From Anaerolineales bacterium (lineage in GTDB: Bacteria > Chloroflexota > Anaerolineae > Anaerolineales > E44-bin32): DNA of 64,000 nucleotides. The translations under genes were made by a program, and so were the position numbers. Position 1 is the first letter of the stretch, and the number at the start of each line of letters is the position of its first letter. The stretch lies in the NCBI GenBank assembly GCA_034430425.1, contig DAOUEK010000077.1, positions 281 through 64,280 of the forward strand, given 5' to 3'. Below are positions 27,129-54,390 of this stretch, piece after piece. Below the pieces are notes generated by a model, which was not told where the DNA came from, did no database searches, and saw nothing but the letters and a program-made list of their open reading frames with translations.

Positions 27129-28325
27129 CTATCCGTTAATATTCTTCTGCAACGCTTCACAAACCCGATCGACCTCTCCCTCGGTCATGATCGTCGAGAA
27201 CGGCAGCGCCAAACTTCGCTTTCCCAGATCTTCCGTCACCGGGAAGTCGCCGGGACGATACTCGAAGCGCTCGATGAAGTAGGGCTGTGTGTGAATGGGC
27301 ACGAAGTAAGGTCGGGAAGGAATCCCCGCCGCAGTCAATCGTTCAACCAGGGCACTTCGATCGACATCCCCGGCCAAACGAACCACGTAAACGAACCAGC
27401 TGACCCGGGTAGTGTTCGGATCTATACGCGGTGCATCTACGCCTGAAATGTCCGCCAGGCGTTCTCCATACCAGTCAGCCACACGCCTGCGCTTATCCAG
27501 CAACTCATCCAGCCGACCCATTTGTACGCGCCCCAAAGCCGCACTCATTTCATCCAAACGATAGTTGTAGCCCAGATGCGTGTGGTCGAGCCAGGTATCT
27601 CCCGGTGCACGACCCTGGTTGCGTAACGCACGGAAGGAATCCGCCCATGATTCGTCTTGCGTAACGATGATTCCCCCTTCACCGGTGGTGATTTGTTTGT
27701 TGGGATAGAAGGCAAACACGCCAGCATCCGCCAACATTCCGGCCGGGCGTCCCTTGTAGCTGGCGCCGAGCGCCTCACACGAATCCTCGATTACGACCAG
27801 GTCATTCTCATTCGCAATCGCATTCAGCGCGTCAAAATCGGCCGGCTGTCCAAACACGTCTACAGGCAGGATGGCCTTCAAGCGACCACTTTCTTGCGCG
27901 CCCTTTCTCGGAAGCCGGCGAGCCGCCGCCTGGCCACCGCGCAGCAGATCCTGCACGGCCTGTCCCACTTGCTCGGGATCGATGTTGCCCGTACTTGAGT
28001 CGATATCGACGAACACCGGCGTTGCTCGCTCGTAGAGAATCACATTGGCCGAGGAAATGAATGAAAAAGGCGTGGTGATGACCCAATCGCCATCCGTAAT
28101 ACCCGCAGCTCGAACGCAAAGATGCAGCCCCGCCGTTCCAGAGCTTACGGCAACGGCATATTCGGCGCCGATATAGTCTGCCACAATGTTTTCAAACGCC
28201 TCGATCTGCGGCCCCATACTCAATCTCGGCGTACGAAGCACCTCCAGCACCGCATCCCGCTCCGCATCCGTTAGGTCCGGCGAAGACATATTGATGGAAA
28301 CCGGTTGTTCGCCATCCTTGGTCAA
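27129..28325 (-). CDS. DegT/DnrJ/EryC1/StrS-family PLP aminotransferase (NDP-keto-sugar aminotransferase)
   Basis: Family pattern EVLRTPRLSMGPQIEAFE...AVAVSSGTAGLHL...NYRLDEMSAALG. Confidence 0.9.
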   Translation of the reverse strand: MTKDGEQPVSINMSSPDLTDAERDAVLEVLRTPRLSMGPQIEAFENIVADYIGAEYAVAVSSGTAGLHLCVRAAGITDGDWVITTPFSFISSANVILYERATPVFVDIDSSTGNIDPEQVGQAVQDLLRGGQAAARRLPRKGAQESGRLKAILPVDVFGQPADFDALNAIANENDLVVIEDSCEALGASYKGRPAGMLADAGVFAFYPNKQITTGEGGIIVTQDESWADSFRALRNQGRAPGDTWLDHTHLGYNYRLDEMSAALGRVQMGRLDELLDKRRRVADWYGERLADISGVDAPRIDPNTTRVSWFVYVVRLAGDVDRSALVERLTAAGIPSRPYFVPIHTQPYFIERFEYRPGDFPVTEDLGKRSLALPFSTIMTEGEVDRVCEALQKNING

Positions 28326-28363
28326 GCCTTTATCCTCCGTTCAGCAATAATGCTATCCCCATA

Positions 28364-29467
28364 TCAATCACGCTTGCTCGATTCCGGCCAGACTGCTCCA
28401 GCCCGCACGATACCGTTTGCGGGCACATCGGCTTTAACCACCGCACTATTCCCTACCCTCGCCCCGGCACCGATCGAAACGCCTAAATTAATCGTGGCTC
28501 CCATACCGATCAGTGTGCCCGCACCTATTTCGACACTGCCCGCCAGCAGGGCTCCCGGTGCGACATTTGCATACTCGGCAATGCGGCAATCGTGTGAAAC
28601 CACCGCGGCTGTGTTCACGATCGCGCCAAACCCAATCGCCACGTCGCTTCCAACGTAGGCATGCGGAAATACTTGAACGCCCTCCGCCAACTCTGCGCTT
28701 TCCTCGATATAAGCTGTCGGGTGAACCAGTGTTGGAAAGGCATAACCAGCCTCGCGCAGCATCTCGAAAACGCGCACCCGACTCTGCATGTCACCGATAC
28801 CCCCTACAGCGTTGACTGCGTTTTCCACACCACGCTGCTTAAGTGTTTCCAGGATTTCGGTACCGCCCAAAATCGAAACGTCCATCACCTGACTTCCCGA
28901 GGCGAGGCCGTCATCCAACACCCCGATGACCGTATACGTGCCAAGCGTACGGATCAAGTCGATCAACGCTTTCCCGTGTCCGCCGCCGCCGTAGACGATG
29001 AGCGCCTGCGAATCGAATTCCCCTTCCGGGATTTCAAGCAGTCTGGCGCGCTGCGCATGTTTGCGCACCACATCCTCTGTGATCCAGATATCTCGCGGCA
29101 GCAACTTCAAATCCACACCCAACTCTTCGGCCAGGGCGAGGGCCGGCTCGGTGATACGCTTATCGAGATCGACCTGTTTAATATTCGAGGCCGCTTTCGT
29201 CTTCTTGGGCGGTTTCCATTTCCGATCGTCAGCCAACCAGCAAAACACCTCTCCCGCCACAAGGCGATCGCCCACGTCCGCCTGGATGCCAGCAACATAG
29301 CCGCTCTGTTCGGCCACTACATCGGCCGTTGATTTCGTGGTCTCCAAGGTGCAGATCAGATCACCCGCCGAGATCGAGGCGCCTTCCGAAACATGGACCG
29401 CCACGAGCTGCGCTTCACGTTCGTTGGGATTCAACAACGGCACGCGCACCTCAACTGCAGTAGACAT
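28364..29467 (-). CDS. chimeric lipoyl-domain / peripheral-subunit-binding-domain / PglD-NeuD-type sugar N-acyltransferase
   Basis: Residues 4-79 form a lipoyl/biotinyl fold with LETTKST (K45). Residues 80-100 form a K/P/A linker. Residues 103-137 are E3_binding-like (ITEPALALAEELGVDLKLLP...ITEDVV). Residues 155-360 are NeuD/PglD-like (LIVYGGGGHGKALIDLI, catalytic-His context VVSHDCRI, hexapeptide repeats). Confidence 0.8.
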   Translation of the reverse strand: MSTAVEVRVPLLNPNEREAQLVAVHVSEGASISAGDLICTLETTKSTADVVAEQSGYVAGIQADVGDRLVAGEVFCWLADDRKWKPPKKTKAASNIKQVDLDKRITEPALALAEELGVDLKLLPRDIWITEDVVRKHAQRARLLEIPEGEFDSQALIVYGGGGHGKALIDLIRTLGTYTVIGVLDDGLASGSQVMDVSILGGTEILETLKQRGVENAVNAVGGIGDMQSRVRVFEMLREAGYAFPTLVHPTAYIEESAELAEGVQVFPHAYVGSDVAIGFGAIVNTAAVVSHDCRIAEYANVAPGALLAGSVEIGAGTLIGMGATINLGVSIGAGARVGNSAVVKADVPANGIVRAGAVWPESSKRD

Positions 29468-29530
29468 CGTTTTGATCTCTCCATAATGCGAAAAAAGCCA
29501 TGACGTTTCCCGTTTCCCCTGTTCGAAGCC

Positions 29531-30529
29531 TCAAGCGACCAACGCCAGCGCCATATTCATGATCTTCTCGACCGAGGGCAGCACCGCCGCCTCAAGCCGG
29601 ATTGCGGCGGGGATGGGCATCTCGAGTGCACCAATGCGGCCGACCTTTATATTGGACGGTATGTCCTCATGCAGTCGCGCCGACACTTCCGCTCCCCATC
29701 CCATCGTTTGCGAGCCTTCTTCAATTACAAGCACTCGTTTGGTCTGAGATGCGCTCTCATATACCGACTCCAGCTTGAATGGGCTGATCTGTGTCGGTAC
29801 GATCAACTCACAAAATATTTCCTTCTCGTACGCCAAATTACGCATGGCTTCACGTGCAAGCTCCGCCATGTAGCCATAGGCCACCAACGTCAGGTTCGGT
29901 TTCGGTGACCTGTGTAATTGTAGTTGATAATCGGGATAGCCGTTGCCGCGCCGTACGATGCCGAAATCTCCCCTTCCACCCAATGGCAGAATCGCGCTCG
30001 GGTAGAGCAGTTTGTGTTCCACAAACAACACCGGGTCGTCGTCCTCCAGCACCGCGTTGCAGAGCAAGGCACCGGGATCATCCAGAGATGAAACAGCGAC
30101 CACACGCAAGCCGGCCGCCCCCAAGAAGTGCTTTTCCAAACTCTGGCTGTGTGTCGGACCATAACCACGACCGCCACCCATGGGAGTACGCACCACGAGA
30201 GGAAGGCGAGTCGCCTCGCCGCTCATCCAACGGATTTTTGCTGCGTGATTGATCAATTGATCGGCCGCCAGGATAATGAAATCCCCGAACATGATTTCAA
30301 CCACAGGGCGCAATCCCCGCAGTGCCATTCCGATCCCCACACCCACAATACCCGCTTCCGAGACCGGCGTCGTAATCACGCGATCTGAGAACTGCGTCGA
30401 CAACCCATTCGCCACCTTGAAGGCACCGCCGTAGGGATCGAGTATATCCTCACCTAAAAAGTAGACCTCAGGCGACTCCTGTAAGCAAGCGACGAGTGCC
30501 TCGTTCAAGGATTCCCGCACAGTCGTCAT
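29531..30529 (-). CDS. 2-oxoacid dehydrogenase E1 component beta subunit (transketolase-like)
   Basis: Typical E1-beta layout: N-terminal pyrimidine-binding domain (FLGEDILDPYGGAFKV, PVSEAGIVGVGIGMAL) and a C-terminal transketolase domain. Confidence 0.9.
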   Translation of the reverse strand: MTTVRESLNEALVACLQESPEVYFLGEDILDPYGGAFKVANGLSTQFSDRVITTPVSEAGIVGVGIGMALRGLRPVVEIMFGDFIILAADQLINHAAKIRWMSGEATRLPLVVRTPMGGGRGYGPTHSQSLEKHFLGAAGLRVVAVSSLDDPGALLCNAVLEDDDPVLFVEHKLLYPSAILPLGGRGDFGIVRRGNGYPDYQLQLHRSPKPNLTLVAYGYMAELAREAMRNLAYEKEIFCELIVPTQISPFKLESVYESASQTKRVLVIEEGSQTMGWGAEVSARLHEDIPSNIKVGRIGALEMPIPAAIRLEAAVLPSVEKIMNMALALVA

Positions 30530-31452
30530 GAGGCACCACCCAATGGGAAGGTCAGGGATTGCGGATCGGCTTGTGGATCGCTCTGCGCGTTTGCGTAGGC
30601 CTCGGCGATTTCCTCCGCTACTGCTTTTTCGATATGCTGCCGCTCCTCGTTTTCAATCCCCGCAGCAAGTAATTGCAATGGATCCTGCGCACGGTACTGC
30701 TCGATTTCCTTTGGATCGCGCCCGTCATCCCCTTTCGAATGCGGCGCGAAGCGGTAGGTGTGCAGGATCAATGCGCGCGGTCCTTCGCCAGTGCGGATCG
30801 AGGTCGTATTCTCACGAGCGCACTGCATGATATTAAACACATCACGTGCTTCCAGCTCCATCGCCGAAATTCCAAATGCCTCAAAACGTGCACACATATC
30901 TCCTGCCAAATTTAATTCCACAGGCGTACTTTGTGCATAACGGTTGTTTTCGACGATGAAAAATAATGGCAGATTCCAGAGGGAAGCCATATTTAGAGAT
31001 TCATAAACCACACCTTCACCAAGCGTGCCGTCACCGATGAAGGTGAATACCACAGAATTTCGCCGCTTCGCGGTCTCAGCAAAAGCCATACCAACCGCGA
31101 TCGGCACCGTACCGCCGAGGATGCCGTTGGCAAAAAAGTCCTGCCATTTGATATGCTGACTCCCCCCCCTGCCGCCGCATATCCCCGTCTCGCGACCGAG
31201 CAGTTCTGCGGCCAATGCGTGCATCGAACCACCGTAGGCCAGAAAATGCCCATGGCAGCGATGGTTGCTGACAACGAGGTCCCCTTCTTGCATGGCCGTC
31301 AGGACACCCACGGCATTGGCCTCTTGACCGATGTAAGTGTGTGTCGTTCCGTAAATCTGACCACTTGGAAATAAATCAAGCAGCCTTTCTTCGAAAAGGC
31401 GGATGCGCAGCATCTTTCGATACAGGTCAACGTGGTTTGGGGAGGGTTCCAT
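30526..31452 (-). CDS. TPP-dependent 2-oxoacid dehydrogenase E1 component alpha subunit
   Basis: NHRCHGHFLA, GRGGSQH, TPP motif GDGTLGEG...ENNRYAQST, YRFAPHSKGDD. ATGA overlap with E1 beta. Confidence 0.9.
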   Translation of the reverse strand: MEPSPNHVDLYRKMLRIRLFEERLLDLFPSGQIYGTTHTYIGQEANAVGVLTAMQEGDLVVSNHRCHGHFLAYGGSMHALAAELLGRETGICGGRGGSQHIKWQDFFANGILGGTVPIAVGMAFAETAKRRNSVVFTFIGDGTLGEGVVYESLNMASLWNLPLFFIVENNRYAQSTPVELNLAGDMCARFEAFGISAMELEARDVFNIMQCARENTTSIRTGEGPRALILHTYRFAPHSKGDDGRDPKEIEQYRAQDPLQLLAAGIENEERQHIEKAVAEEIAEAYANAQSDPQADPQSLTFPLGGAS

Positions 31453-31478
31453 TATTCAAAAGCGCTTCTTTCCAGTCT

Positions 31479-31519
31479 GTGTTACTCTGGACGGATCGGG
31501 ACCAGAGACATGATAACAC
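31479..31519 (-). promoter_or_regulatory. interrupted inverted repeat in the leader of the E1 operon
   Basis: GTGTTA-CTCTGG (31479-31490) against CCAGAG-(ACATGA)-TAACAC (31502-31519). It lies between the upstream terminator and the E1-alpha start. Confidence 0.3.
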
Positions 31520-31532
31520 AAGCTCTTGTTGG

Positions 31533-31568
31533 AAAAAACAATAAGCCGCCCAAGTAAATGGACGGCTT
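31533..31568 (-). terminator. rho-independent terminator after the small basic protein gene
   Basis: On the minus strand, AAGCCG-loop-CGGCTT is followed by ATTGTTTTTT. Confidence 0.75.
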
Positions 31569-31601
31569 CGAAAATGATATTCTCAACGCCGATGAAAAGA
31601 C

Positions 31602-31784
31602 TTACATATTCATCTTTCCGAAATCTGCTTTAACAATACGCCAGGCTTCGTGGCTTCCCCCGGGAGCACGAGCAACTGCGAAATAGCGTGTCTTGCCTTT
31701 GGACTCCTTGGCCTCGATCCTCCAGTCTGCGCTTGTGAACTTCGACTTCGCCTTGATATCATAAAACTCAAGTGGTTCCTTCAC
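31602..31784 (-). CDS. small (60 aa) basic hypothetical protein
   Basis: GTG start at 31784 lies 6 nt after a strong SD, GAGGAGG. Sequence VKEPLEFYDIKAKSKFTSADWRIEAKESKGKTRYFAVARAPGGSHEAWRIVKADFGKMNM is Lys/Arg-rich and looks beta-rich. It has its own terminator. Confidence 0.55.
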   Translation of the reverse strand: MKEPLEFYDIKAKSKFTSADWRIEAKESKGKTRYFAVARAPGGSHEAWRIVKADFGKMNM

Positions 31785-31963
31785 TGTCCGCCTCCTCTGC
31801 AGAATGATTGTGCCGAAAATGCCCGCACACAGTCCTATCTTATCCTCTCTACGCTTACCCCACAAGTCAGACTTTTGTACGCCTATATCTACAACCAACT
31901 ATCAGGCACTATTTTACCTGCTTAATGGCTTACTGTGAGATAGGCCAACAATGGTGTTTAACA

Positions 31964-32599
31964 TCATCCGCCATCCTGCTTTCCCATGAATTCCTCTGCG
32001 GTTGCATGCCCAGGTTGGCTGATCCCTTCACGTTTGATCACTTTCCAGAAATTAAGCAGCAGGATCTTCATGTCAAGCCGCAGCGACCAATGATCCACGT
32101 ACCAGACATCACGTTCAAATTTCTCCGCCCAGGAAATCACGTTACGTCCACCAATCTGTGCCCAACCGGTGATCCCCGGAAGCACATCATGCCTGCGCGC
32201 TTGTTCCGGAGAATAACGCTCGAGGTACTTCATTAATAACGGCCGAGGACCAACGAGACTCATCTCGCCGCGCAAAACGTTGAATAGCCCGGGCAATTCA
32301 TCGATGCTGGATGAACGCAGGAAACGTCCCAATTTGGTGAGTCTGTCTTCATCGGGCAGAAGCGTGCCATTGGCGTCACGCCTATCGATCATCGTCCTGA
32401 ACTTATAGATTTCGAATGGTGCTGCCCGATAGCCCGGTCGTAATTGTCGAAAGAGCACCGGTTTCCCCAATTGCATCCGGATCAACAGCGCCGAAAGCGC
32501 CATAAACGGGCTGATCAGAACCAGGCCAGGCACAGCCAATACCAAGTCGAATATCCGCTTCCGCAATGGGATTCCAGGAATGAACAACGGCATCTTCAT
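31964..32599 (-). CDS. small monotopic polyprenyl-phosphate sugar-phosphate transferase (PglC/WbaP-C-terminal type)
   Basis: Bacterial sugar transferase signature KRIFDLVLA...LFRQLRPG...FEIYKFRTM...IDELPGLFNVLRGEMSLVGPRP. Confidence 0.9.
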   Translation of the reverse strand: MKMPLFIPGIPLRKRIFDLVLAVPGLVLISPFMALSALLIRMQLGKPVLFRQLRPGYRAAPFEIYKFRTMIDRRDANGTLLPDEDRLTKLGRFLRSSSIDELPGLFNVLRGEMSLVGPRPLLMKYLERYSPEQARRHDVLPGITGWAQIGGRNVISWAEKFERDVWYVDHWSLRLDMKILLLNFWKVIKREGISQPGHATAEEFMGKQDGG

Positions 32600-32665
32600 A
32601 CAGGAATTAACCCCGCAGCCAAACACAAAGAATCGAGCACACACCCGTACGGCACTGGCTGGTAT

Positions 32666-33895
32666 TTATTTATCAATTTGATCTGCAACCTGGATAAGTT
32701 CTTCCATTACCGCTTGCATCCTGCCGGCCAGAATATTTCGATCGAATCGTTCCACGGCACATTTACGTCCAGCGCTGCCCATGCGCGCACACAGATCCGG
32801 GTCGGTTTGAAGGATTTTCACAGCCCCTGCCAGTGCTTGTGGGTATCCCGGTCGCACGAAAATCCCGGCACCTGCTTCTTCCACCACAGACCTTATCACG
32901 CCATCAATGACCAGCAAGATCGGACGTCCGGCGGCCAAATAATCGAAGACCTTGTTGGGATAGGTGGTTTTATATGCCGCGATGGGTTTTAGGATGGCGA
33001 TGCATGCATCCGCAGCAGCCAGCGCCATGGCGATATTGTTCTTCGACGTCGGTGGCAGAAAATAGACATTGGAAAGCTTCAACGCCGCCGTTTTCCTCAT
33101 CAGTGCACTTTTTTCTTTTCCATCACCGATCAAAACGAAGGCCAGTTTCTTTTGATCCCGCAAACGGTCAGCCGCCTCGATGACCACACCGAGATCGTTG
33201 GACATGCCATGCGCTCCCGCATACATCACTACGAATACTCCCTCGAGATCATGTGCCTGACGGAACGCTGCGCCCTTATCCGTCGGATCAAACATGGACA
33301 CGTCCACACCGTTAGGAACCAGGGCAACACGGCGTGCCCCTCGCTCGCGGACATGGCCTTCATAACCCGGCGAGTTGATCACCACTAGATCTGCGGCGAA
33401 ATACAAAAACCGCTCAAACCATCGGGCCAGCTGAATCAACACCCGATTCCGCAGTACACCTACTGCAACCGCAAAATAAGGCCATAAATCACGCACTTCA
33501 AATAGAAACGGCTTTCTCTTCAAACGCGCCAAAGCCCACGCCGCCAAACCCTGAAAGATGGGTGGTGAAGTCCCCCAAACCAGATCCACCTCACGAACAC
33601 GCAATCCGATGAAAAACGATGAGATCGTGAAGCTGAGGAAACTCAGGATGCGGTGAAAAAAGGAGCGGTGCCAGGCCGCATAGGTATAGCAGCGATAAAT
33701 CACGACACCGTGATCATCTGTTTCCGTTTTTACCCAGCCGCTCGCGGTACGTTCTCCGGTGAGGTAATTGACCTGCCCGGTAATCACGGTAACGCGGTGT
33801 CCCTGGGATGCCAGATAGCGCGCCATTTCATGGTGGCGCGTCCCGCCTGGCTCACCCAGCGCGGCGAATACTTGATGGATCAGCAGAATATGCAT
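32666..33895 (-). CDS. glycosyltransferase family 4 (WbuB-like)
   Basis: MHILLIHQVFAALGEPGGTRHHEMARYL N-terminus is typical of WbuB-type GT4. Start moved to the ATG at 33895. Overlaps the upstream gene by 44 nt. Confidence 0.85.
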   Translation of the reverse strand: MHILLIHQVFAALGEPGGTRHHEMARYLASQGHRVTVITGQVNYLTGERTASGWVKTETDDHGVVIYRCYTYAAWHRSFFHRILSFLSFTISSFFIGLRVREVDLVWGTSPPIFQGLAAWALARLKRKPFLFEVRDLWPYFAVAVGVLRNRVLIQLARWFERFLYFAADLVVINSPGYEGHVRERGARRVALVPNGVDVSMFDPTDKGAAFRQAHDLEGVFVVMYAGAHGMSNDLGVVIEAADRLRDQKKLAFVLIGDGKEKSALMRKTAALKLSNVYFLPPTSKNNIAMALAAADACIAILKPIAAYKTTYPNKVFDYLAAGRPILLVIDGVIRSVVEEAGAGIFVRPGYPQALAGAVKILQTDPDLCARMGSAGRKCAVERFDRNILAGRMQAVMEELIQVADQIDK

Positions 33896-36092
33896 TGTTA
33901 ATTTCCAGGTATTGTCTCTGCCACCGAAGAGAAGAAACGGGTGTGAGTGCTTGCCCGGGATCGCTCCACTCGATCTCCACTTCATCTTTGTTAACACCGG
34001 CCAATTGCCACCAGGTGCATCGGCGGACCGGTAAAGTTGCCTCACTTCGAGTTACATAGCGAAGGCAGGGCGCTTTAACTCCATATTTATTCGAGCGCCA
34101 ACCGACGATCTCAGGATCAGGAACGACTTCATCGCCGTACTCCAATACGCCGGCTCGATAAAGTCCGACTCGCCCAACACTCCCTTCCAGTCTCATCTCG
34201 ATATTGGACGCACCCATTTCAAGCGAGAGACCGGTATCCATTGGTTTCCACGCATAATCGGGCATCGTCCAGCCAATGGATGTGTTGTGTACACCCTCTC
34301 CAAGCAGATCATCCACGACCAGCCACAAATCCTCTCCCAGCCTGGCTACCGAACGACGATGGATCACACCAAGCGACCGGTAGCCATAATGCTCTCCCGT
34401 GAGCATCTCGATTTCACCATTTTGCGTACACCAGCGCCCCAGGAGTCTACCCTGCGCCCAGTCGACCCATAAAAATCTGCCCGCTCGATGCATGGGATCC
34501 TGGTCGTCGATCAGGACGGTGTTGTGAAACGCAGCTCCGACCCAGGGATTATCCCAGGGTGGTTTCCCATTATACAGGTACGTACCCGGATCACAGGCAA
34601 TGTTATTCCCTTGCCACCACAGATCGAAATGCAGTTGATCCGAGTGCCCCGGCCGGGATCGAAAATGGGCGCAGCGCAGTATCCCCCAGGTCTTTTCCCC
34701 GCAAAGGAGATAAAATCCGCTGTCTGAAAAGTGATCGCGGGATTCAACATCCTGCTTATAACTCTCAGCTTCCTTCTTCTGACGAGTCGCTCTTTGTTCT
34801 CGAGTAGTGTCCCCTGATACTCCGGGACTCACACCAAACCAGAGCAGTTCTTCATCCCGGGGACCACTCGGGAAAGGCCTGGTTTCTCCGAAAACCAACG
34901 CGGCCGCCTGACCCGTCGGACGGTGGTCTTCGAACGCACAAGTGCTCAGTGGAAAGATCAGCGCGCCGTCATTCGGACCCATGTTGGGTACTTCTCCGCA
35001 TTCCCGATCGATCATTGCGGTGTACCAGCGGGTGCAGTGGCGCAGCGCCTGAAACGACGCAGGGGATAATGGTTCGCCATTGACCTGCGCCAACCGGGCA
35101 GACCACAGCGCCGTTTGAAGTGCCAGGCGATGGTAATTGGTCGAATGCTGCACGTAACCACCGTCGGTGAAGATTTGATGGCGCAGGGATTTTTCCAGCC
35201 AACGCCGGCCCACCCGGCGCCAAACTTTCGCTTTGCGGAATTCCGGGAACAACAAACCCACACTATAAAGCCCCACCGCCTCGACCAGCAAATGATTGTT
35301 CCCCTGTGATCGAGCGTAGAGCAGCGTCGGCGGAATCCGCGCCGCGTGTACGGCGATCAACTGTGCGATCTCACACAGCTTTTCTGGCGAGTCGGCAACT
35401 CGATGAAAAGTAATCTGCAAAGCAAAAATCATCGCCAGTATGCGAATCGCCACTTCTTGCGCCGAAATCCAATGCGGCCCGGTGTTGGGCGGGTTGCTCT
35501 TTCGCCAGGAATTAATCAAGTGCCAAATGGCATCGGCGTAACGCACATCGTCGGTTAAAACGTACGCCCTGGCCAGCGGGAACACCCATCCGAAACGTGC
35601 CGGTTCCCACAGCAGTTTAATATCTTGCGGATAATCCTTCTCGTTGCAGGCTGTCCAATGTGTACCCAGAGAAACGGAAGCGCTTGCCGGATTGCCTGGT
35701 GAGGATGCAAACTTCTCCCAATCCGGCGGAAACCCCAAATCGTAGTTATCCGTGCCGAACAATCGAAATCGACCTGCCAGAATCGCATCCGCCTGTGCAA
35801 TAACTGCTTCTTCCTGCTGCCCGATGATCTCCTTCAACACCCGAGCGAACTCAGGATCAGGGTCGAGGAAAAAAAGCTTTCCGCTCCGTTTGCGAATTTC
35901 CAGGTAGTCATCGGGATCACCCGAAGTACCCGGCTGAAGCCAGGAGGCAAGAGGGACATCCTGCCAGGCCTGTTGCGGCGTCCGCCAGCGAAACCATCCC
36001 AAACGCAAGAGTACTTGGTAGATCCCATAGAGGATCATGGACCTGGGGCCAAGTTCACCAACCGCACGCAGAATGGTTTTTATCGATGCCAT
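33852..36092 (-). CDS. heparinase II/III-like (polysaccharide-lyase fold) protein
   Basis: 746 aa. The central region with NHLLVEAVGLY...GGYVQHSTNYHRLAL and the C-terminal HSDQLHFDLWWQG match the heparinase II/III / alginate-lyase family pattern. Confidence 0.75.
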   Translation of the reverse strand: MASIKTILRAVGELGPRSMILYGIYQVLLRLGWFRWRTPQQAWQDVPLASWLQPGTSGDPDDYLEIRKRSGKLFFLDPDPEFARVLKEIIGQQEEAVIAQADAILAGRFRLFGTDNYDLGFPPDWEKFASSPGNPASASVSLGTHWTACNEKDYPQDIKLLWEPARFGWVFPLARAYVLTDDVRYADAIWHLINSWRKSNPPNTGPHWISAQEVAIRILAMIFALQITFHRVADSPEKLCEIAQLIAVHAARIPPTLLYARSQGNNHLLVEAVGLYSVGLLFPEFRKAKVWRRVGRRWLEKSLRHQIFTDGGYVQHSTNYHRLALQTALWSARLAQVNGEPLSPASFQALRHCTRWYTAMIDRECGEVPNMGPNDGALIFPLSTCAFEDHRPTGQAAALVFGETRPFPSGPRDEELLWFGVSPGVSGDTTREQRATRQKKEAESYKQDVESRDHFSDSGFYLLCGEKTWGILRCAHFRSRPGHSDQLHFDLWWQGNNIACDPGTYLYNGKPPWDNPWVGAAFHNTVLIDDQDPMHRAGRFLWVDWAQGRLLGRWCTQNGEIEMLTGEHYGYRSLGVIHRRSVARLGEDLWLVVDDLLGEGVHNTSIGWTMPDYAWKPMDTGLSLEMGASNIEMRLEGSVGRVGLYRAGVLEYGDEVVPDPEIVGWRSNKYGVKAPCLRYVTRSEATLPVRRCTWWQLAGVNKDEVEIEWSDPGQALTPVSSLRWQRQYLEINNAYSADPSSIRRAG

Positions 36093-36100
36093 TACGATCT

Positions 36101-38272
36101 TTAGAGAGAATCGATCTTCACAGGTTTGCGCGTACGAAGTGCCTCCACAGCGGCAATCGAACTAAGGCTGACACCGACCAGATGCTCGTACGGAATCGGC
36201 GGCGGACCACTTTCTTCAAGCGCCTTTGTAAACGCTTCCCATTCCTGACGATGGCCCTTATCCTGGCGCAGCCGGGCGCGGTGCACTTTTCGCTTTCCGT
36301 TTTGAATGCGCACTAGCCGCCGGAAATCATCGAGAACGGCCACGCGACCGCCGCCAATGATTTCGACCCGCTCTTTGGGAAAGGCGCGGTCGCCAGCAGC
36401 CAGGTAACTCAGTGTCCCAACTGATCTGTCCGTAAATTCGAGCGTGATAATCACGTTGTCTTCGCGATAACGGGATGCGTCCGGTAAACCCAGCGCAGAG
36501 ACCTGCACAGGTGCAGCGCCGTTGATAAACGTGAGAAAATCGATGAAATGACAGGCTTCCCCGATGATGCGGCCGCCGCCCTGCTGCTCATCATGCAGCC
36601 AATGATCCAGGGGTAGATACCCGGCGTTGACGCGATAGTGCATTGCCAGCGGCTCGTTAACCGCATCGAAGAAAGTCTTCAGACGAACGGCGAAGGGTGA
36701 AAAGCGCCGGTTGAACCCCACGGTCAACATGCGATCGCTTTGTCCCAGCACCTGCATGATCTCGTCCAGTTCGTCCCGCTGCAGGGCCAGCGGTTTCTCG
36801 CAGAAGACATGCTTGCCGGCTTTCAACGCCGCGATCACCTGGGCGGCGTGGAGATGATGCCGCGTGAGTACGGCAACGGTGTTGATGCCTTCGTCGTTGA
36901 GAATCTCGTTTACATCCGTAGTGGCGTAGCGGAAGCCGAAACGCTTTCCAACCTGCGCGCTCTTCAGTCCACTCGCGGTAACCAATCCAACCCGCTCGAC
37001 CCCCTTTACCTTCCGCAAGGCAGGAAAGAGAATCGCCGTGGCGAAATTCCCCGCACCGATCGCTCCCAGTCGAACGCCAGCGGCAGGGGATATCTTGCGA
37101 TGCTCCAGGCCGACCCGTCGATCTTCTTCGGCAAGCTGTTCTTTCTCCTGCGGGTACGTAAGCAGCACAGCCAAAAAGGATTCATTGGTCTTTCCTGTGA
37201 TCAAATCGTACGCTGCGCTGGCGTGTTCGATGTCGAAGCGATGGCTGATCAACGAAGCGACGTCAAAACCACCCCCAGCTAACGTCTCCAAAAAAGCACC
37301 CAGGTTGCGTCCTTCGGTCCAACGTACATACCCGGGTGGATAGTCGATCCCGGCTTCTTCGTACAACGGATCATAGCGTCCCGGTCCATAGGAGCGCGAG
37401 ACGATGAAATGCAGTTCCTTGTGGTAATACGAACGCCGGGGGATGTCCATGCCCACTGCACCGACAGCCACGACTCTCGCCCGATCGCGTGCGATCGCCC
37501 CTGAAAGTTCGACCGGATCGTTGGACAGCGTATCGGCACAGATCAAGACGACATCGCATCCCAGACCGTTGCTGAAGGCTGCAGCCGCCTGTTCGGCGTC
37601 CGCATTTGTGACCGCTGTGGCGCCCAGGTCCTTCGCCCGTTCGACTCGCTCGGGGTCGAGATCGACTCCAAAAACGGAACAGCCTGCGGCGCGGGCGATC
37701 CCTACGGAAAGCAATCCCAACAGCCCCAGTCCAATAACCGCCACACGCTCGCCGAGCTGCGGTTCGGCCAGTCGAAAACCGTGCAGGGCGATAGCGCCCA
37801 GCGTGGCAAAAGCCCCCGCCTCGAAATCTACTTCATCGGGTAAATGCGCGAGTAAGTTTTGAGGCACGACGGCATATTCGGCATGAACCGCATAGCCACC
37901 ACCGGCGCAAGCCACTCGATCCCCCGCGCGGAAACCGTGCAAACCATCTCCCACGGACACAACCGTCCCTGCGGAGGCGTATCCCAGGGGCATGGGCTCA
38001 TCGAGCCGGTTCCGCACCGCCTCGAAAGTCGTCAGCAGCCCTTCACGCCGGACTTTATCCAGGACCTGGCGTACTAAATCGGGCCGTGAGCGGGCCTTGC
38101 CCAGCAAGGATTTCCCGGCGAACTCGACCACGCTTCGTTCGGTCCCTGCAGAGACGAGCGAAGCAGCGGTACGCACCAGGGCCATCCCCGGTCCCGGAAC
38201 GGGCACGGGAACGTCGATCACGCTGGTCTCGCCGGAGCGAACGTCTTGAATGACTTGTTTCATCGAATTCAT
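36101..38272 (-). CDS. bi-domain oxidoreductase: MDR alcohol-dehydrogenase-like N-half plus Gfo/Idh/MocA C-half
   Basis: The N-half has a GroES-like fold plus Rossmann motif VAVIGLGLLG. The C-half has LGAIGAGNFA...EKPLAL (Gfo/Idh/MocA). The MDR zinc-ligand positions are not conserved (SLVSAGTERS). The start may be 38263. Confidence 0.8.
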   Translation of the reverse strand: MNSMKQVIQDVRSGETSVIDVPVPVPGPGMALVRTAASLVSAGTERSVVEFAGKSLLGKARSRPDLVRQVLDKVRREGLLTTFEAVRNRLDEPMPLGYASAGTVVSVGDGLHGFRAGDRVACAGGGYAVHAEYAVVPQNLLAHLPDEVDFEAGAFATLGAIALHGFRLAEPQLGERVAVIGLGLLGLLSVGIARAAGCSVFGVDLDPERVERAKDLGATAVTNADAEQAAAAFSNGLGCDVVLICADTLSNDPVELSGAIARDRARVVAVGAVGMDIPRRSYYHKELHFIVSRSYGPGRYDPLYEEAGIDYPPGYVRWTEGRNLGAFLETLAGGGFDVASLISHRFDIEHASAAYDLITGKTNESFLAVLLTYPQEKEQLAEEDRRVGLEHRKISPAAGVRLGAIGAGNFATAILFPALRKVKGVERVGLVTASGLKSAQVGKRFGFRYATTDVNEILNDEGINTVAVLTRHHLHAAQVIAALKAGKHVFCEKPLALQRDELDEIMQVLGQSDRMLTVGFNRRFSPFAVRLKTFFDAVNEPLAMHYRVNAGYLPLDHWLHDEQQGGGRIIGEACHFIDFLTFINGAAPVQVSALGLPDASRYREDNVIITLEFTDRSVGTLSYLAAGDRAFPKERVEIIGGGRVAVLDDFRRLVRIQNGKRKVHRARLRQDKGHRQEWEAFTKALEESGPPPIPYEHLVGVSLSSIAAVEALRTRKPVKIDSL

Positions 38273-38399
38273 TGAACGGGATTATGCGGCCCATAAAACC
38301 CGTTCGAGCCTCCTAAAATCATCATTTCTCGGGGGATTATAGCATCAGGAAGCAATGTGAGACATCAACGCAGGAACGTCACATCCTGGCAAAAATAAT

Positions 38400-39416
38400 T
38401 CAACGATCAGCTTGTTTGAGTACCCGCAGCGCCCGCAGCGTCACCCATTTGTTCGGCTTTTTCCTGGCACCGAAATCCAGCCAAGTCTTGCCGGTGTAAT
38501 CGTACTCGAGCGCCCAGCGCCCTTGCTCGTCCTGTTTCGCGCGGATGAGATCCAGCGCATTTTCCAAGCGCGGGTCTTCCCTATAACCGAGCAGCGAAAG
38601 GACATCCACAACCTGCAACACATCACTCACATAAAAGACAGGAAATCCAAATTTCCACCAGTTCCCGCTCGGCTTATCCGCATAGCCATGCGGGTATTCC
38701 GCCGAGGCGGGATCGACGCTGAAGAGGAAATCCACCCCGCGCTCGATCGCCTGCTCGATGAACGGCGTCCGCTTTTCCACCGGCAGCTTGGTAAACGCCA
38801 GTATGACTTTTACCGCGCCCCAGGCGCAGGCCAGCTTGTTGTTCGCCCCACAGAGGAAGTCTGGACCACATTTGCCGGCATAATACCGCAGCTCTGCGTT
38901 TTTTTCGCTCTGCGGCGCCACGCCCTCGCCGGTCACGCTGCGCACCATCCACTCGTAGGCTGCATCGAGCCGTTCGTCCTCCCAACCCAGATCGACCAGC
39001 GCGGCGCACATGTTACCCTGCAGGCAATCCACCGTTCCGGAGGGTGGGCCCGTGACCGAAAAACGACCACCGTCGGCAAGCAAGTTTGCCAGCGCGTACT
39101 CACACGCCCGCCCGATGCGATCGTCGATCTCGACGGAGGCGCCCATTTGCGCCAGGGTGATCAACGACCAGACCGTGCCCCGATATTTGGGATAGTAACC
39201 CGTTCCCGGTTCAACCCAGCAGCCATCGGAATGCATTTCGGCAAGCACCGCTGCGATGGGACCGTTCTTGTGTGCCGCTTCACGAGCAGAATTTAACGTC
39301 GCCGAAGCGGACGGCTCGTCCGCCAAATCACGCAGCGCTAGATAACGCACACCAGGCGAATCCGGTTCCAACAACCAGGGGAGCGAATCCCCCTTCAATT
39401 GGTCTTTCCATGTCAT
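38400..39416 (-). CDS. hypothetical protein, possible alpha/alpha-toroid (prenyltransferase/terpene-cyclase-like repeat) fold
   Basis: 338 aa, with periodic aromatic/Gly-rich helical-hairpin repeats (DGCW, DGGRF, QGRW). The family assignment is weak. Confidence 0.4.
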   Translation of the reverse strand: MTWKDQLKGDSLPWLLEPDSPGVRYLALRDLADEPSASATLNSAREAAHKNGPIAAVLAEMHSDGCWVEPGTGYYPKYRGTVWSLITLAQMGASVEIDDRIGRACEYALANLLADGGRFSVTGPPSGTVDCLQGNMCAALVDLGWEDERLDAAYEWMVRSVTGEGVAPQSEKNAELRYYAGKCGPDFLCGANNKLACAWGAVKVILAFTKLPVEKRTPFIEQAIERGVDFLFSVDPASAEYPHGYADKPSGNWWKFGFPVFYVSDVLQVVDVLSLLGYREDPRLENALDLIRAKQDEQGRWALEYDYTGKTWLDFGARKKPNKWVTLRALRVLKQADR

Positions 39417-39487
39417 CCTGTCACCTCAATTAGCGTCTTACACGCCCAGAAACATCGATCTACTTCCTCCTGAAGCAGCCATGCCGC

Positions 39488-40705
39488 TTATGACATAAAG
39501 GATCGGTAAAACTCGACGGCCTTGGTCATAACCTTGTGGTATGATGCACGTTCTTCAATCAAAGTTAGATTGCGATTCGCAGAACGTAAGCGTAGATCCA
39601 CATCATAAAGCGCTCGATTAATGGCATCAGCAAGTGCCAAGGGATCATCCGGCTCGATTAATAACCCATTCTGGCCATCGACGATCCACTCGCGGATCGA
39701 CTCAAGATCGCCCGCCACCGGGAAACAACCACAGGCCATGGCCTCCAAGAGCGTGTTCGGAGTCCCGTCGTGCTCGCTGATCGACACGGTCACCTGCGAG
39801 CGTTGATATATCCTGGCCATTTCTGCACGGGTCAGGTGAGGCAGCAGACACACAGCATGGCCGATGTGCAGACGAGAGACCCATTCTTCAGCCGTCCTCT
39901 CACCTGCCATTGTCGGACAAAGAAATATCGTATCCGGATGTACATCCAATATTCCCGGGATCGACCGGAAGAAAGTATCGTTGCGCACATAACGTCGAAA
40001 GCCGCGTGGATTTACCACCACCGGCGTGTCTGCAGAGATCATCCCGGTTAAATACGATAATGCACCCGACCAATCGTTAACACGCGTCTCTGCAGGATGA
40101 AATTCTTCTCTGTGAATGCCGCCGCTTGCAGGCAAGACAATTGACGGCCGATCTTGCGGGAATCCCCACTCGCAGGCCAGTTCTTGATCCCGCCGACAAT
40201 CCGTCAGCAGGCCATCGATATGAGTGAGTGTCTTGCGTGTGGCGCGGGCCATCAGCGGCGTAGACGGGGCATGCAGGGTGAAATCGTTGCCCCAGATTGT
40301 GAGCAAGAGCGGCACTTTTGGATCGGCCCTCGCGGCGAGCATGCCCTCATAGGGGATGCGCATGGCGTGAATCAGGTCGGGCTCGATCCGATGGATATAA
40401 TCTGCAACTTGTTCCGCAGCCCGTGATAACGTCAACGGTCCGAGCCAGTGACGAACCCATGTACGCAGTCGAATCCAGCGCGCTCCGCGCCAGAATCTTC
40501 GGCGATTGGTTTCAAGCGACATCAATGCCGGATTTCCGGCAAAGCCGCTGAAGGCCACCGGCACGAAATTAAGCGAAGTCAAATCCAGGACCGGATCGCA
40601 TACAAAGGTCGACAGTAAATGCACTTCGTCCTGCGCCTCGACGAAATGCCGCATCCAGGTGAGTGCAGTTGGGCTACGCCCGTCGGCGATAAAGAGCAAA
40701 CGCAT
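39488..40705 (-). CDS. glycosyltransferase (GT-B, GT4/GT1 type)
   Basis: C-terminal E-x7-E region SISEHDGTPNTLLEAMACGCFPVAGD. Confidence 0.8.
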   Translation of the reverse strand: MRLLFIADGRSPTALTWMRHFVEAQDEVHLLSTFVCDPVLDLTSLNFVPVAFSGFAGNPALMSLETNRRRFWRGARWIRLRTWVRHWLGPLTLSRAAEQVADYIHRIEPDLIHAMRIPYEGMLAARADPKVPLLLTIWGNDFTLHAPSTPLMARATRKTLTHIDGLLTDCRRDQELACEWGFPQDRPSIVLPASGGIHREEFHPAETRVNDWSGALSYLTGMISADTPVVVNPRGFRRYVRNDTFFRSIPGILDVHPDTIFLCPTMAGERTAEEWVSRLHIGHAVCLLPHLTRAEMARIYQRSQVTVSISEHDGTPNTLLEAMACGCFPVAGDLESIREWIVDGQNGLLIEPDDPLALADAINRALYDVDLRLRSANRNLTLIEERASYHKVMTKAVEFYRSFMS

Positions 40706-40706
40706 C

Positions 40707-41825
40707 TCAACGCTCCCGGGTGACCATGTTCAGCGCCTGAACGAAAACCGAGGCCATGGTTTCGATATTGAAACGTTCGCGTGCCAGGCGATGCGATTCC
40801 TGCCCCATCGACTGTAAACGCGCAGGATCCGACAACGCCTCCTGCAGCGTTTTCACCAGCGCCTGGATATTGCCAGGCGGCACCAGCCATCCGTTTTGTG
40901 GAGTCGCCAGATCATTCTGCGTGCCGTCTCCTTCGGCCACGATCACCGCTAATCCATGTGCCATAGCCTGCTGTACAGCCAACCCACCCGTGCCGGGCAG
41001 CACGAATAGATCCGCAGCCCGGAAATACTCGTCCAGCGCTTCCTCCTGCTGCGCGCCGACGAATCGCGCCTGCGGATAGATCTCCCGGGCAAACGCTTCC
41101 AAATCGCTTCGAGCCGGTCCGTCCCCGACGATGGTCAAGGCGGGTTTTTTTTCCAGCGATGCACAAGCTTGGAGCAAGTTGTCCACGCGCTTGCGCGCCT
41201 GCAAACGACCGACGAAGAGCACACTGCGTTCCTCCTGCGGTTTCACTTTTCGAGATGCGAAAGGCGGCGGGATTGGGGCGACGGCGTTGGGCGCCACGAA
41301 AACACGATCATCACGAACCCCCAACTTGCGGTATTGGTCAGCCCCCTCCGTACTGTAGGCGATCAGCGCATCGAAGCCGTTAAGAAATCGTTGCCGATAG
41401 GCGATGCGGATTCCCGCGAAAACACCTTTTGGAGCAGGTGCACCCAAACCCCAGCCGATGACCGGTCGGTTTTTTTGCCGCATCCAGCGCAGCGCTGCCC
41501 AGTTGGCGATATAGCGCGGGTTGGCTTCCAGGATCAAGGCCAGCGGATCCCAATCCCCCAGCCATTCCAACAGCTTCTGCTGGTAACAGAAATACAGGGG
41601 GCCACCCAAAATGTGGCGATTTCTCCCCGAATAAAACAAATCCCTTTCCAGCTCACCTGCAGCAAGGATGCCTTCGGTTTGTCGTGGTTCGCCGGCGAAT
41701 ACTCTCAGACCGCCTTCGCAAACCGCGGCCAGCTGCTTGAAGAATGGAAGGCGATAGGCAGGCACAACACGCTGCTGTAGACCCAGGCGGCCTGCATAGG
41801 TGCTCCTCTGCTGATCCCCCATCAC
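40707..41825 (-). CDS. glycosyltransferase family 4
   Basis: LFVGRLQARKRVDNLL...LFVLPGTGGLAVQQAMAHGLAVIV. Starts 1 nt after the next gene's end region, so it is tightly packed. Confidence 0.8.
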   Translation of the reverse strand: MMGDQQRSTYAGRLGLQQRVVPAYRLPFFKQLAAVCEGGLRVFAGEPRQTEGILAAGELERDLFYSGRNRHILGGPLYFCYQQKLLEWLGDWDPLALILEANPRYIANWAALRWMRQKNRPVIGWGLGAPAPKGVFAGIRIAYRQRFLNGFDALIAYSTEGADQYRKLGVRDDRVFVAPNAVAPIPPPFASRKVKPQEERSVLFVGRLQARKRVDNLLQACASLEKKPALTIVGDGPARSDLEAFAREIYPQARFVGAQQEEALDEYFRAADLFVLPGTGGLAVQQAMAHGLAVIVAEGDGTQNDLATPQNGWLVPPGNIQALVKTLQEALSDPARLQSMGQESHRLARERFNIETMASVFVQALNMVTRER

Positions 41826-42859: not shown

Positions 42860-43308
42860 TGCATATCTTCCCGCACACCGACACACTTTGCCGGAACACC
42901 GGCCCAGATCTCGCACTCACCCGTCGATTGCAGCAATACGGCATTCGCCGCTACGATCGTGCCCCGCGCCACGCGCAGTTCCCCCGTTTTTCCCAGCACT
43001 TTCGAGCCAGACGCGAGCAGCACATCATCTTCAATGAAGATACGTTCGAAGGCGGAGACATGCGCGGGCAGATGCACATCCGCCCGTCCAAGTGTCACAC
43101 CGGGATAGAGCTTCACTCGACTCCCGATCACCGTGTGCGGGTGCACCACTACACCAAAGCCGCCGTGTTCGAGCAGCAGGTTATCGCCGATCTGAACCGA
43201 GCGTGGAATTTCCACACCCAGCAGTTTCAATAGATAATACGCAAATCGTCCCAGGACAGGTAAACGACGCGTGTAGACGAGTGTGGTATAGAAATCTTTA
43301 TGCGGCAT
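42856..43308 (-). CDS. hexapeptide-repeat O-acetyltransferase (serine acetyltransferase-like)
   Basis: Left-handed beta-helix repeats GFGVVVHPHTVIGSRVKLYPGVTLG...DDVLLASGSKVLG. Confidence 0.8.
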   Translation of the reverse strand: MPHKDFYTTLVYTRRLPVLGRFAYYLLKLLGVEIPRSVQIGDNLLLEHGGFGVVVHPHTVIGSRVKLYPGVTLGRADVHLPAHVSAFERIFIEDDVLLASGSKVLGKTGELRVARGTIVAANAVLLQSTGECEIWAGVPAKCVGVREDMQ

Positions 43309-43336
43309 ACGATATCTACACTTTCATGAATGGCGA

Positions 43337-45734: not shown

Positions 45735-45980
45735 CTGTCCGCCTCCATGAACGCCCTTTATTATCCCATAAACGATGCACTGGGGCTGAAGCAGTGCTTG
45801 AAAATCGATCAATCGAAAGAATTGAAATCATATAATACATACTACGAACTCGTCTTCATGCAAAGAAGAAAACCATCCCGGGAAAAAAAGAGCTATGATT
45901 AAGCTAATAAGGTAGAATCTCCAACAACGTACGCAGCTCTTTATGGGGGAACCATACATCTCTTATCTGTGAGGAAGAAT

Positions 45981-54117: not shown

Positions 54118-54390
54118 GAAATCACATCACCGCAAACCAACGTGATTTGAATGAGGGCTTGATTGGCATTATTGCATGGTTTCGAATTCTTAATTCAATA
54201 GAATTGACATTCTGGTAATCTGCATTTATCCTCTCGATGTGAACGCGTGGTTAAACGCTTCACTGGCACTCGTATAAAGCTTGGGATTCACGGAAACAAC
54301 TTCCGTAAGCCACCACCAACGAGAATAACGACAAAACCCGATGGGTGTTATGCCCTCCAAGGGAATGCGTCGCCAGGAAAGGACATCGTA

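Follow-up and report, generated by a model that had tools for sequence, protein, structure and literature searches.

A 64,000-nucleotide stretch of contig DAOUEK010000077.1 from an Anaerolineales bacterium (hereafter the window) contains four co-directional minus-strand genes. They encode the alpha and beta subunits of a 2-oxoacid dehydrogenase E1, a chimera in which a lipoyl domain and a domain resembling the peripheral subunit-binding domain (PSBD) precede a PglD/NeuD-type sugar N-acyltransferase, and a DegT-family aminotransferase (Table 1). We think it somewhat probable that E1 and the chimera form a dedicated two-component module, in which E1 would load an acyl group on the lipoyl arm and the left-handed beta-helix of the chimera would transfer it to a nucleoside diphosphate (NDP)-4-amino sugar. 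Such a route, bypassing acyl-coenzyme A (acyl-CoA), had been proposed in an initial annotation made from the letters of the window, and the comparative tests that were run lend it support at the level of sequence.

The chimera has the complete layout of E2, the acyltransferase of 2-oxoacid dehydrogenase complexes: a lipoyl domain, a linker, a PSBD-like domain, a second linker and a trimeric catalytic domain, with the core exchanged for a sugar N-acyltransferase. The structural elements listed in Table 1 come from an AlphaFold2 model built on 103 homologues (pLDDT 92.8). Foldseek matched the N-terminal domain of this model to the lipoyl domain of pyruvate dehydrogenase (PDH) E2 (3CRK_C, TM 0.83), and its C-terminal half to PerB, Neisseria PglB-ATD, VioB and PglD (TM 0.86-0.91, root-mean-square deviation (rmsd) about 1.5-2.3 A). 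PerB (4EA7; 2e-27, TM about 0.9) and Neisseria PglB-ATD (4M98) are also the best PDB matches of the beta-helix half, and the chimera scores 180.7 bits against a cutoff of 160.8 for the NCBIfam model NeuD_NnaD (TIGR03570, NeuD/PglB/VioB). PF00198, the canonical E2 core domain, gave no match, and its signature DHRxxDG was found in no reading frame of the window or of the 57 related loci scanned.

The initial annotation had read a PSBD in the chimera. This stood for the family, but at Pfam thresholds no PSBD is detectable in the window protein taken alone. A profile of 48 linkers matches solved PSBDs (1W4I at 2.8e-8, and also 1W4J, 2EQ9_C, 6ZZL and others), and the sole difference is a 3-residue loop deletion where canonical PSBDs read 'GTG'. 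Pfam E3_binding matches 12 of the 48 family members, and the window's own copy is below threshold (E = 0.28). Judged by profile comparison, the linker is a PSBD homologue, and clearly so at the level of the family.

The residues for each step of the proposed route are kept, namely the lipoyl-lysine, one histidine in each E1 subunit and the PglD-type catalytic histidine. The codon of the lipoyl-lysine, K45, is at 29333-29335, with ETTKST read directly, and N285 to H292 are encoded at 28615-28592, with NTAAVVSHDC read directly. An alignment of 103 members, 26-92% identical to the window protein, shows no variation at E42 or K45 and at least 90% conservation of H292/D293. The residue aligned with H292 (motif SHDC) in PerB is His141, which is mutated in PDB entries 4EAA and 4EAB. 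The sugar-site motifs GxGGH and N-x6-HD are present in 66 and 68 of 74 members, respectively; we take them to map to His15, Asn118 and His125 of PglD, the residues that handle the sugar amine. A loss of CoA binding in the fused forms was also considered. When 278 fused and 21 plain beta-helix domains were compared, only two C-terminal positions, 345 and 353, were less often basic in the fused ones, a difference that was set aside as too weak and confounded by phylogeny.

By its domains and motifs, the E1 pair of the window is a divergent 2-oxoacid dehydrogenase E1 subfamily of the heterotetrameric alpha/beta type. The best PDB match of E1 alpha is human PDH E1 alpha (9e-45), with the E1 alphas of Thermus 2-oxoacid dehydrogenase, Geobacillus PDH and branched-chain 2-oxoacid dehydrogenase (BCKDH) being less similar. 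It retains the GDG...ENN motif for thiamine diphosphate and the loop histidine (FAPHSKGDDG), which aligns with human alpha-His263. E1 beta is closest to the beta subunit of Thermus 2-oxoacid dehydrogenase (1UM9_B, 1.7e-50) and retains the histidine of HSQS. Across the module these signatures are universal, with YR-x3-HSKGD in 44/44 alpha and GPTHSQS in 57/57 beta sequences. The alpha loop histidine and the beta HSQ histidine are presumably those to which the literature on PDH E1 assigns a part in reductive acylation of the lipoyl group.

Neither subunit reaches the NCBIfam cutoff for PDH E1 (alpha, TIGR03182, 273.6 against 393.85; beta, PRK09212, 205.1 against 321). In addition, the window encodes a full-length pyruvate:ferredoxin oxidoreductase (PFOR; 1193 aa, 57861-61442, minus strand), which provides a route from pyruvate to acetyl-CoA that is independent of the E1 pair, so the pair is not the sole pyruvate oxidiser. 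Together, PFOR and the low model scores support the view that this E1 is not a housekeeping enzyme. The initial annotation would have been undermined had these genes been the organism's only PDH/acetoin E1, working with a canonical E2 and E3 encoded elsewhere; the presence of PFOR, and the gain or loss of E1 together with the lipoyl-PSBD extension described below, speak against that. Pyruvate remains our default guess for the substrate of E1.

Proteins with the full chimera architecture that are 53-100% identical to the window protein form more than 120 clusters at 90% identity. When 1.84 billion representatives were searched exhaustively, full-length chimeras made up most of the best 150 matches, down to about 29% identity, and nearly all the chimeras found carry an E-[TS]-[TS]-K motif at about position 41. 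The family is present in at least five phyla. Its named members, from Chloroflexota, Armatimonadota, Gemmatimonadota, Omnitrophota and Bacteroidota (Dokdonia, Polaribacter), are all annotated merely as 'NeuD/PglB/VioB family sugar acetyltransferase'. Antisense open reading frames (ORFs) of 430-455 aa recur over the beta-helix repeats (L070, L106, L115 and others; family F8), and almost certainly arise as artefacts because the coding sequence of the hexapeptides is repetitive.

Linkage between E1 and the chimera was counted in two sets of loci. The Chloroflexota set comprised 51 genome loci, all from Anaerolineae, and was counted where the flank sufficed. In 27/27 such lipoyl-bearing loci the chimera is immediately preceded, on the same strand, by E1 alpha and E1 beta, compared with 0 of about 19 loci with a plain PglD (about 210 aa) that have an E1 within 8 kb. 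The second set comprised 86 non-Chloroflexota loci, of which 55 have a full-length chimera preceded by 1.1 kb or more of sequence. E1 is directly upstream in 53 of these, among them loci from Armatimonadota, Omnitrophota, Gemmatimonadota and Bacteroidota. In 23 of the 53, E1 alpha and E1 beta are fused in one ORF of 640-685 aa that abuts the chimera, and the fusion is seen in L053, L055, L056, L057 and L139; the window and Anaerolineae have a separate gene for each subunit. When neighbouring ORFs were clustered over the 86 loci, no family besides E1 recurred in more than about 12, so the core that is conserved consists of E1 and the chimera, with DegT and the small phosphoglycosyl transferase (PGT) as frequent but not universal neighbours. 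Of the cassette whose conservation the initial annotation had asked about, the linkage of E1 to the lipoyl-NeuD fusion therefore held, whereas DegT turned out not to be a constant part.

Anaerolineaceae provide a direct comparison of loci with and without E1. Their backbone consists of adenosine deaminase, an SDR epimerase/dehydratase, Mpg glycosylase, [...], PglD, bactofilin, a CAAX protease, prolyl-tRNA synthetase (ProRS), DegT, bPH and DUF92. In one state (L007, L016, L020, L026), the locus contains E1 alpha, E1 beta and a 360-aa chimera. In the other (L031, L033, L034, L047), there is no E1 and the PglD is plain, with 226-244 aa. Two states at an orthologous site mean that the E1 genes and the lipoyl-PSBD extension were gained or lost as one unit, and that, by position, the chimera is orthologous to an ordinary PglD that depends on acetyl-CoA. 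One synteny family of this backbone, F3, had been considered as a PGT, but Pfam identifies it as methylpurine-DNA glycosylase and the backbone as housekeeping genes.

The genes next to the module place the chimera in an amino-sugar pathway. The best PDB match of the window DegT is GDP-perosamine synthase (3BN1, 4.7e-70), a C-4 aminotransferase, and its scores are under the cutoffs of the PseC and LegC models; judging from this match, it probably acts at C-4. Its start codon is TTG, 8 nt after a GGAGGA ribosome-binding site. The PGT matches PglC, the transferase of N,N'-diacetylbacillosamine (diNAcBac)-1-phosphate (8G1N, 5e-65), and lies upstream of E1 alpha in most Anaerolineae loci and in L139 of Armatimonadota. 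An Armatimonadota contig repeats the cassette of the window in the order PGT, E1 alpha-beta, chimera, DegT. Since the PGT is near PglC, the DegT near a C-4 enzyme and the beta-helix near PerB/PglD, N4-acylation of an NDP-4-amino-4,6-dideoxyhexose is indicated. A WbpA/B/E/D/I-type route to a 2,3-diacetamido-uronic acid was weighed for the module and is not favoured: C-4 enzymes (PerB, Per) are the nearest matches of the beta-helix and DegT, PglC is that of the PGT, and WlbB matches only marginally.

Chimeras with about 33% identity to the window protein also belong to clusters of the legionaminic type (L052, L053/L054), which run dehydratase, DegT, PtmE-like NTP-transferase, E1, chimera, NeuB, hydrolysing 2-epimerase and CMP-synthetase. 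For the LegH/PglD step, the chimera is the sole candidate there. Homologues of LuxE (acyl-protein synthetase) and LuxC (acyl-CoA reductase) lie beside DegT and the E1-chimera pair in one of these clusters (L053, 815-3120), with a sulfotransferase further downstream, which is an unusual set of tailoring genes. A nonulosonic-acid cluster from Omnitrophota (L056, 7082-14546) contains E1 and the chimera together with a plain 205-aa PglD and two DegT genes, which suggests that the chimera and the plain PglD do different jobs. In an uncultured Dokdonia sp. (L055, 1-10110), a 685-aa E1 alpha-beta and the chimera directly follow a nonribosomal peptide synthetase (NRPS; C-A-T modules) and a TonB-dependent receptor, away from sugar genes, and the acceptor there could be something other than a nucleotide sugar.

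In the mechanism that we favour, the E2 core, which passes the acyl group to CoA, would have been replaced by a trimeric sugar N-acyltransferase of the PglD/PerB type. A small 2-oxoacid would be decarboxylated by E1 on thiamine diphosphate, and E1 would then reductively acylate the lipoyl group on K45, while the PSBD-like domain would keep E1 and/or E3 (dihydrolipoyl dehydrogenase) nearby. The flexible tether would move the S-acyl-dihydrolipoyl arm into the active site of the beta-helix. There, H292 would deprotonate the 4-amino group of the NDP-4-amino-4,6-dideoxyhexose supplied by the adjacent DegT, and the acyl group would pass to N4. In the window, the PglC-like PGT would put the product, either diNAcBac-like or N-acyl-perosamine-like, on a lipid carrier and so start the glycan. 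Finally, the dihydrolipoyl arm would be re-oxidised by an enzyme encoded elsewhere. The sequences show the domain content, the conserved key residues, the near-obligate gene linkage, the joint gain and loss and the place in the pathway; lipoylation of the chimera, its loading by E1, passage of the acyl group to the sugar without CoA, the identity of that group and re-oxidation of the arm are inferred, and E3 may be recruited through the PSBD. The acyl group may be other than acetyl. PFOR-derived acetyl-CoA, together with the plain PglD and two DegT genes that accompany the module in the Omnitrophota cluster, makes a non-acetyl product a live option.

Several observations weigh against this mechanism. 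An anaerobe that has PFOR already has acetyl-CoA and no obvious need of a CoA-free acetyl donor. The beta-helix domain has about 33% identity and an rmsd of 1.5 A to the acetyl-CoA-dependent PerB, with no clear loss of the CoA site. The linkage has two exceptions, chimeras without a nearby E1 (L105, between SMC and ThyX, and L136, with a sulfotransferase upstream). A soil/peat lineage (L093, L098, L099, L102, L116, L121, L123, L130, L134) has no sugar genes within 8 kb, and carries a stand-alone operon of E1 alpha, E1 beta and chimera whose conserved neighbours are malate dehydrogenase, citrate synthase, a methylglyoxal-synthase-like protein and a LysM protein. In the 64-kb window, a 4,6-dehydratase was not found, and the substrate of DegT is not defined locally. 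The distances among E1 beta, lipoyl domains and beta-helix domains correlate with r = 0.86-0.90 (Mantel p <= 0.001, 70 loci), which speaks for the mechanism in that it fits co-inheritance, but is not specific to it, as a shared species phylogeny predicts the same. Finally, neither an E3, a disulfide oxidoreductase nor a lipoate ligase or synthase was found in the window, in motif scans of 57 loci or by clustering ORF families in 86 non-Chloroflexota loci, so turnover would rely on partners encoded elsewhere. Gaps of 1-1.4 kb between E1 beta and the chimera in L005, L009 and L029 had been candidates for E3 or LplA; they encode an NHL-repeat-like membrane protein or a secreted protein.

The likeness of the beta-helix to PerB, PglB-ATD and PglD, from which it is nearly indistinguishable, opens a different use of the lipoyl arm. 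The acyl group could be handed to CoA at the beta-helix site, much as an E2 does, and the acyl-CoA then used by the same site or by a neighbouring plain PglD, making the module a local generator of acyl-CoA. The plain 205-aa PglD beside the module in L056 is consistent with this, and sequence does not separate such a relay from direct transfer. We nonetheless consider it unlikely, because a second acyltransferase is missing from most loci, a route through free CoA gains nothing over the cellular pool when PFOR is present, and the cis fusion points to channelling. The soil/peat operon raises another possible explanation, namely that the beta-helix serves as a non-canonical E2 core in an alternative 2-oxoacid dehydrogenase complex that makes acyl-CoA for general metabolism, its link to sugar genes being secondary. 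The malate dehydrogenase and citrate synthase genes a few genes away, and modules that are isolated or beside an NRPS in Gemmatimonadota and Dokdonia, are in keeping with it. However, genes on the opposite strand separate malate dehydrogenase and citrate synthase from the operon, and GxGGH, N-x6-HD and PglD_N are retained in exactly those lineages, for which reasons a metabolic role was not read from these neighbours. With the chimera also replacing a plain PglD in Anaerolineaceae, filling the LegH step in legionaminic clusters and having a linked E3 in no locus examined, we regard an alternative complex of this kind as quite improbable.

E1 alpha/beta-like pairs are also known from deoxysugar clusters. 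AviB1/AviB2 and Plm8/Plm9 use pyruvate as the source of a two-carbon unit (PMC4802897), and the E1 of the window, which lies in a glycan locus beside ketosugar-handling enzymes, could by analogy attach a two-carbon branch to an NDP-ketosugar, with the lipoyl domain irrelevant or structural. The AviB and Plm pairs act without a lipoyl partner and make a C-C bond with a ketosugar, whereas here a lipoyl carrier and an N-acyltransferase are obligatorily linked to E1 and the lipoyl-PSBD extension is gained and lost with it. The lipoyl-lysine is invariant and both E1 histidines are universally kept, and branched-sugar synthesis is in our view very improbable. Least of all do we credit coincidence, in which the E1 pair would serve a canonical E2 and E3 elsewhere and the lipoyl domain of the chimera would be a non-functional relic. 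The resemblance of the subunits to PDH E1 and the lack of a nearby E3 or lipoylation gene would be expected in that case, but the linkage in 80/82 loci from five or more phyla, compared with 0 of about 19 where PglD is plain, the invariance of E42 and K45, the fused E1 alpha-beta abutting the chimera in 23 loci and the presence of PFOR lead us to disfavour it strongly.

The module shares features with several known systems. Like the E2 of PDH, BCKDH and acetoin dehydrogenase, the chimera carries an N-terminal lipoyl lysine at the tip of a hairpin, from which a linker, a PSBD-like segment and another linker lead to a catalytic domain that forms trimers, and, as in those complexes, an alpha2beta2-type E1 with its thiamine diphosphate motif and both catalytic histidines is encoded directly upstream. 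It differs from a canonical E2 in having PglD_N and a left-handed beta-helix in place of the CAT-like 2-oxoacid_dh core, a PSBD loop that is 3 residues shorter, and a lipoyl motif of ET[TS]K rather than E[ST]DKA; no E3 is linked, and a sugar amine, not CoA, is presumed to accept the acyl group. With PglD, PerB, PglB-ATD, VioB and LegH, it shares the domain pair, the fold (TM 0.86-0.91), the catalytic His-Asp and a TIGR03570 score above the cutoff, and its gene lies beside DegT and a PglC-like PGT or inside legionaminic clusters, as in the PglD/LegH group. Members of the PglD/PerB group have about 200 aa and use free acetyl-CoA, while the chimera has a 150-aa lipoyl-PSBD extension and an obligatory E1 partner. 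Lipoyl domains have likewise moved off E2 in alpha-proteobacterial E1 beta, Neisseria E3 and E3-binding protein (E3BP/protein X), and the window lipoyl domain matched NF008854 (E1 beta) and 5U25 (E3), but in those cases a canonical E2 core is still in the complex.

Transfer from a carrier arm by a beta-helix enzyme has a parallel. LpxA and LpxD are beta-helix acyltransferases that take their acyl group from a carrier-protein thioester, acyl-acyl carrier protein (acyl-ACP). They resemble the proposed chimera mechanism as left-handed beta-helix trimers that move an acyl group from a carrier-arm thioester to a UDP-sugar; the sequence matches to them are weak. Their carrier is a separate phosphopantetheine ACP with acyl groups from fatty-acid synthesis, whereas the carrier of the chimera is a fused lipoyl domain for which loading by a thiamine diphosphate enzyme is proposed.

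To our knowledge, lipoate is the cofactor of only a handful of systems, namely PDH, 2-oxoglutarate dehydrogenase (OGDH), BCKDH, acetoin dehydrogenase and glycine cleavage, all in central metabolism. No description of an E1 plus lipoyl-NeuD/PglD system was found in full-text searches of the literature; one report was considered as a precedent and rejected, as 'lipoylation' is used loosely there for fatty acylation (PMC4875605). If the proposed chemistry holds, the module would be an addition to this very short list, with swinging-arm chemistry recruited to the tailoring of cell-surface glycans and its product going to a sugar amine instead of CoA. This would be a new acyl-donor logic for the N-acylation of nucleotide sugars, from 2-oxoacid to lipoyl carrier to amine, and it would draw attention to hundreds of proteins, from at least five phyla, whose present annotation is only 'NeuD/PglB/VioB acetyltransferase'. 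An E2 core that can be swapped for an unrelated trimeric acyltransferase would also bear on the evolution and engineering of multienzyme complexes.

A broader idea, conceivable but doubtful in our judgement, is that the module represents a sixth kind of lipoate-dependent machine, a glycan-tailoring E1 with a pseudo-E2, in which the N-acyl group is fixed by the 2-oxoacid specificity of E1 and not by the acyl-CoA pool. Variants of E1 could then install non-acetyl groups, for instance glycolyl (hydroxypyruvate as source), propionyl (2-oxobutyrate) or formyl (glyoxylate), and the module would be a candidate origin of some unusual N-acyl groups on derivatives of bacillosamine, perosamine, legionaminic acid and pseudaminic acid. 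For the nonulosonic acids of Tannerella, the genetic basis of non-acetyl N-acyl substituents has been described as unknown (PMC5378307).

Table 1. Features of the E1-chimera locus in the window, with the elements of the chimera model
Feature	Position	Strand	Basis or remark
Hairpin 3' of the DegT stop codon	27086..27118	-	12-bp perfect stem, read in sequence
DegT-family PLP sugar aminotransferase, 398 aa	27129..28325	-	PF01041 full length, 5.5e-114
Lipoyl-PSBD-PglD/NeuD chimera, 367 aa	28364..29467	-	Biotin_lipoyl residues 6-75, PglD_N 156-237, Hexapep
PglD_N (residues 155-240) and left-handed beta-helix acyltransferase (241-360)	28388..29005	-	TIGR03570, PDB, Foldseek
PSBD-like two-helix domain, residues ~101-141	29045..29167	-	Family profile and AlphaFold2 helices; preceded by disordered tether 93-100
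Lipoyl domain, residues 1-80	29228..29467	-	PF00364, 2e-12
E1 beta, 332 aa	29531..30529	-	Transket_pyr PF02779, 1.6e-30; Transketolase_C PF02780, 4.9e-19
E1 alpha, 308 aa	30526..31452	-	PF00676, 6e-60
E1 alpha leader, 90 nt, terminator to start codon	31453..31542	-	Read in sequence
Intrinsic terminator	31543..31568	-	Scan match; ends the small upstream ORF and precedes the E1 alpha leader
Small basic ORF, 60 aa	31602..31784	-	Between PGT and E1 operon
PglC-like small PGT	31964..32644	-	PF02397, 3.5e-62
Model element: beta-barrel lipoyl domain	residues 1-80		AlphaFold2; K45 at beta-hairpin tip
Model element: disordered tether	residues 93-100		AlphaFold2; pLDDT <50
Model element: short helices	residues 101-141		AlphaFold2
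Model element: Rossmann-like PglD_N domain	residues 155-240		AlphaFold2
Model element: left-handed beta-helix	residues 241-360		AlphaFold2

The layout of the locus is largely as first described. The order and coordinates of the four genes agree exactly with the ORFs, and the ATG of E1 beta can be read directly as overlapping the stop codon of E1 alpha (ATGA). The rho-independent terminator reported upstream of the unit is present at 31568-31543 as a GC-rich stem-loop followed by a U-tract, with a 10-bp stem, -17.9 kcal/mol and z = -5.1; 0/200 shuffles fold equally well. The perfect hairpin reported after the DegT stop codon is present as well (27118-27086, -22.5 kcal/mol, z = -4.2). It has no U-tract and is therefore not a canonical intrinsic terminator. 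The view of the four genes as an independent transcription unit gained no support. A promoter scan found no sigma-70-like promoter in the 90-nt leader, and the PGT directly abuts E1 alpha in most relatives, where the module is probably not transcriptionally independent. Rfam matched nothing in the leader and gave neither a riboswitch nor any other RNA near the operon.

The small ORF at 31602-31784 (VKEPLEFYDIKAKSKF...) has a GAGGAGG ribosome-binding site and its own intrinsic terminator, and gave no Pfam or PDB match. A gap between PGT and E1 alpha of matching size (about 517 nt) occurs only in the closest relatives (L001-L003), and the ORF is not present in loci where the PGT abuts E1 alpha. 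It is probably not part of the system.

The rest of the 64-kb window was covered by Pfam searches of all its ORFs of 180 aa or longer and by six-frame scans for signature motifs. Neither turned up a 2-oxoacid_dh E2 core, a Pyr_redox E3, LplA/LipB, or a lipoate ligase or synthase, in agreement with the first reading that the window has no E2 catalytic domain or E3 gene. The closest relatives of the contig are metagenome-assembled genomes of Anaerolineales. A Kbl-like class I/II aminotransferase, an SDR epimerase/dehydratase-family protein and a double hot-dog thioesterase are encoded at 54247-57451 on the plus strand, with no visible tie to the module.

The 18.6-kb glycan locus of the initial annotation is real (27129-45812), and the E1-chimera unit lies at its end. 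Besides the PglC-like PGT, it encodes a UDP-sugar dehydrogenase, an Epimerase_2 protein, four GT4 glycosyltransferases, a fusion of a zinc-dependent alcohol dehydrogenase (Zn-ADH)-like protein with a GFO/IDH/MocA oxidoreductase and a heparinase II/III-like protein. The fusion, the UDP-sugar dehydrogenase and Epimerase_2 (36101-38272, with 43337-45812, both minus strand) resemble a partial WbpA/WbpB/WbpI-type route to a diacetamido-uronic acid, and the locus may make more than one amino sugar. The heparinase II/III-like protein (746 aa, 33852-36092, minus strand) sits within this biosynthesis locus. Its ORF shares about 190 nt with the start of the downstream GT4 as annotated, which suggests that the true start of the GT4 is probably later than listed.

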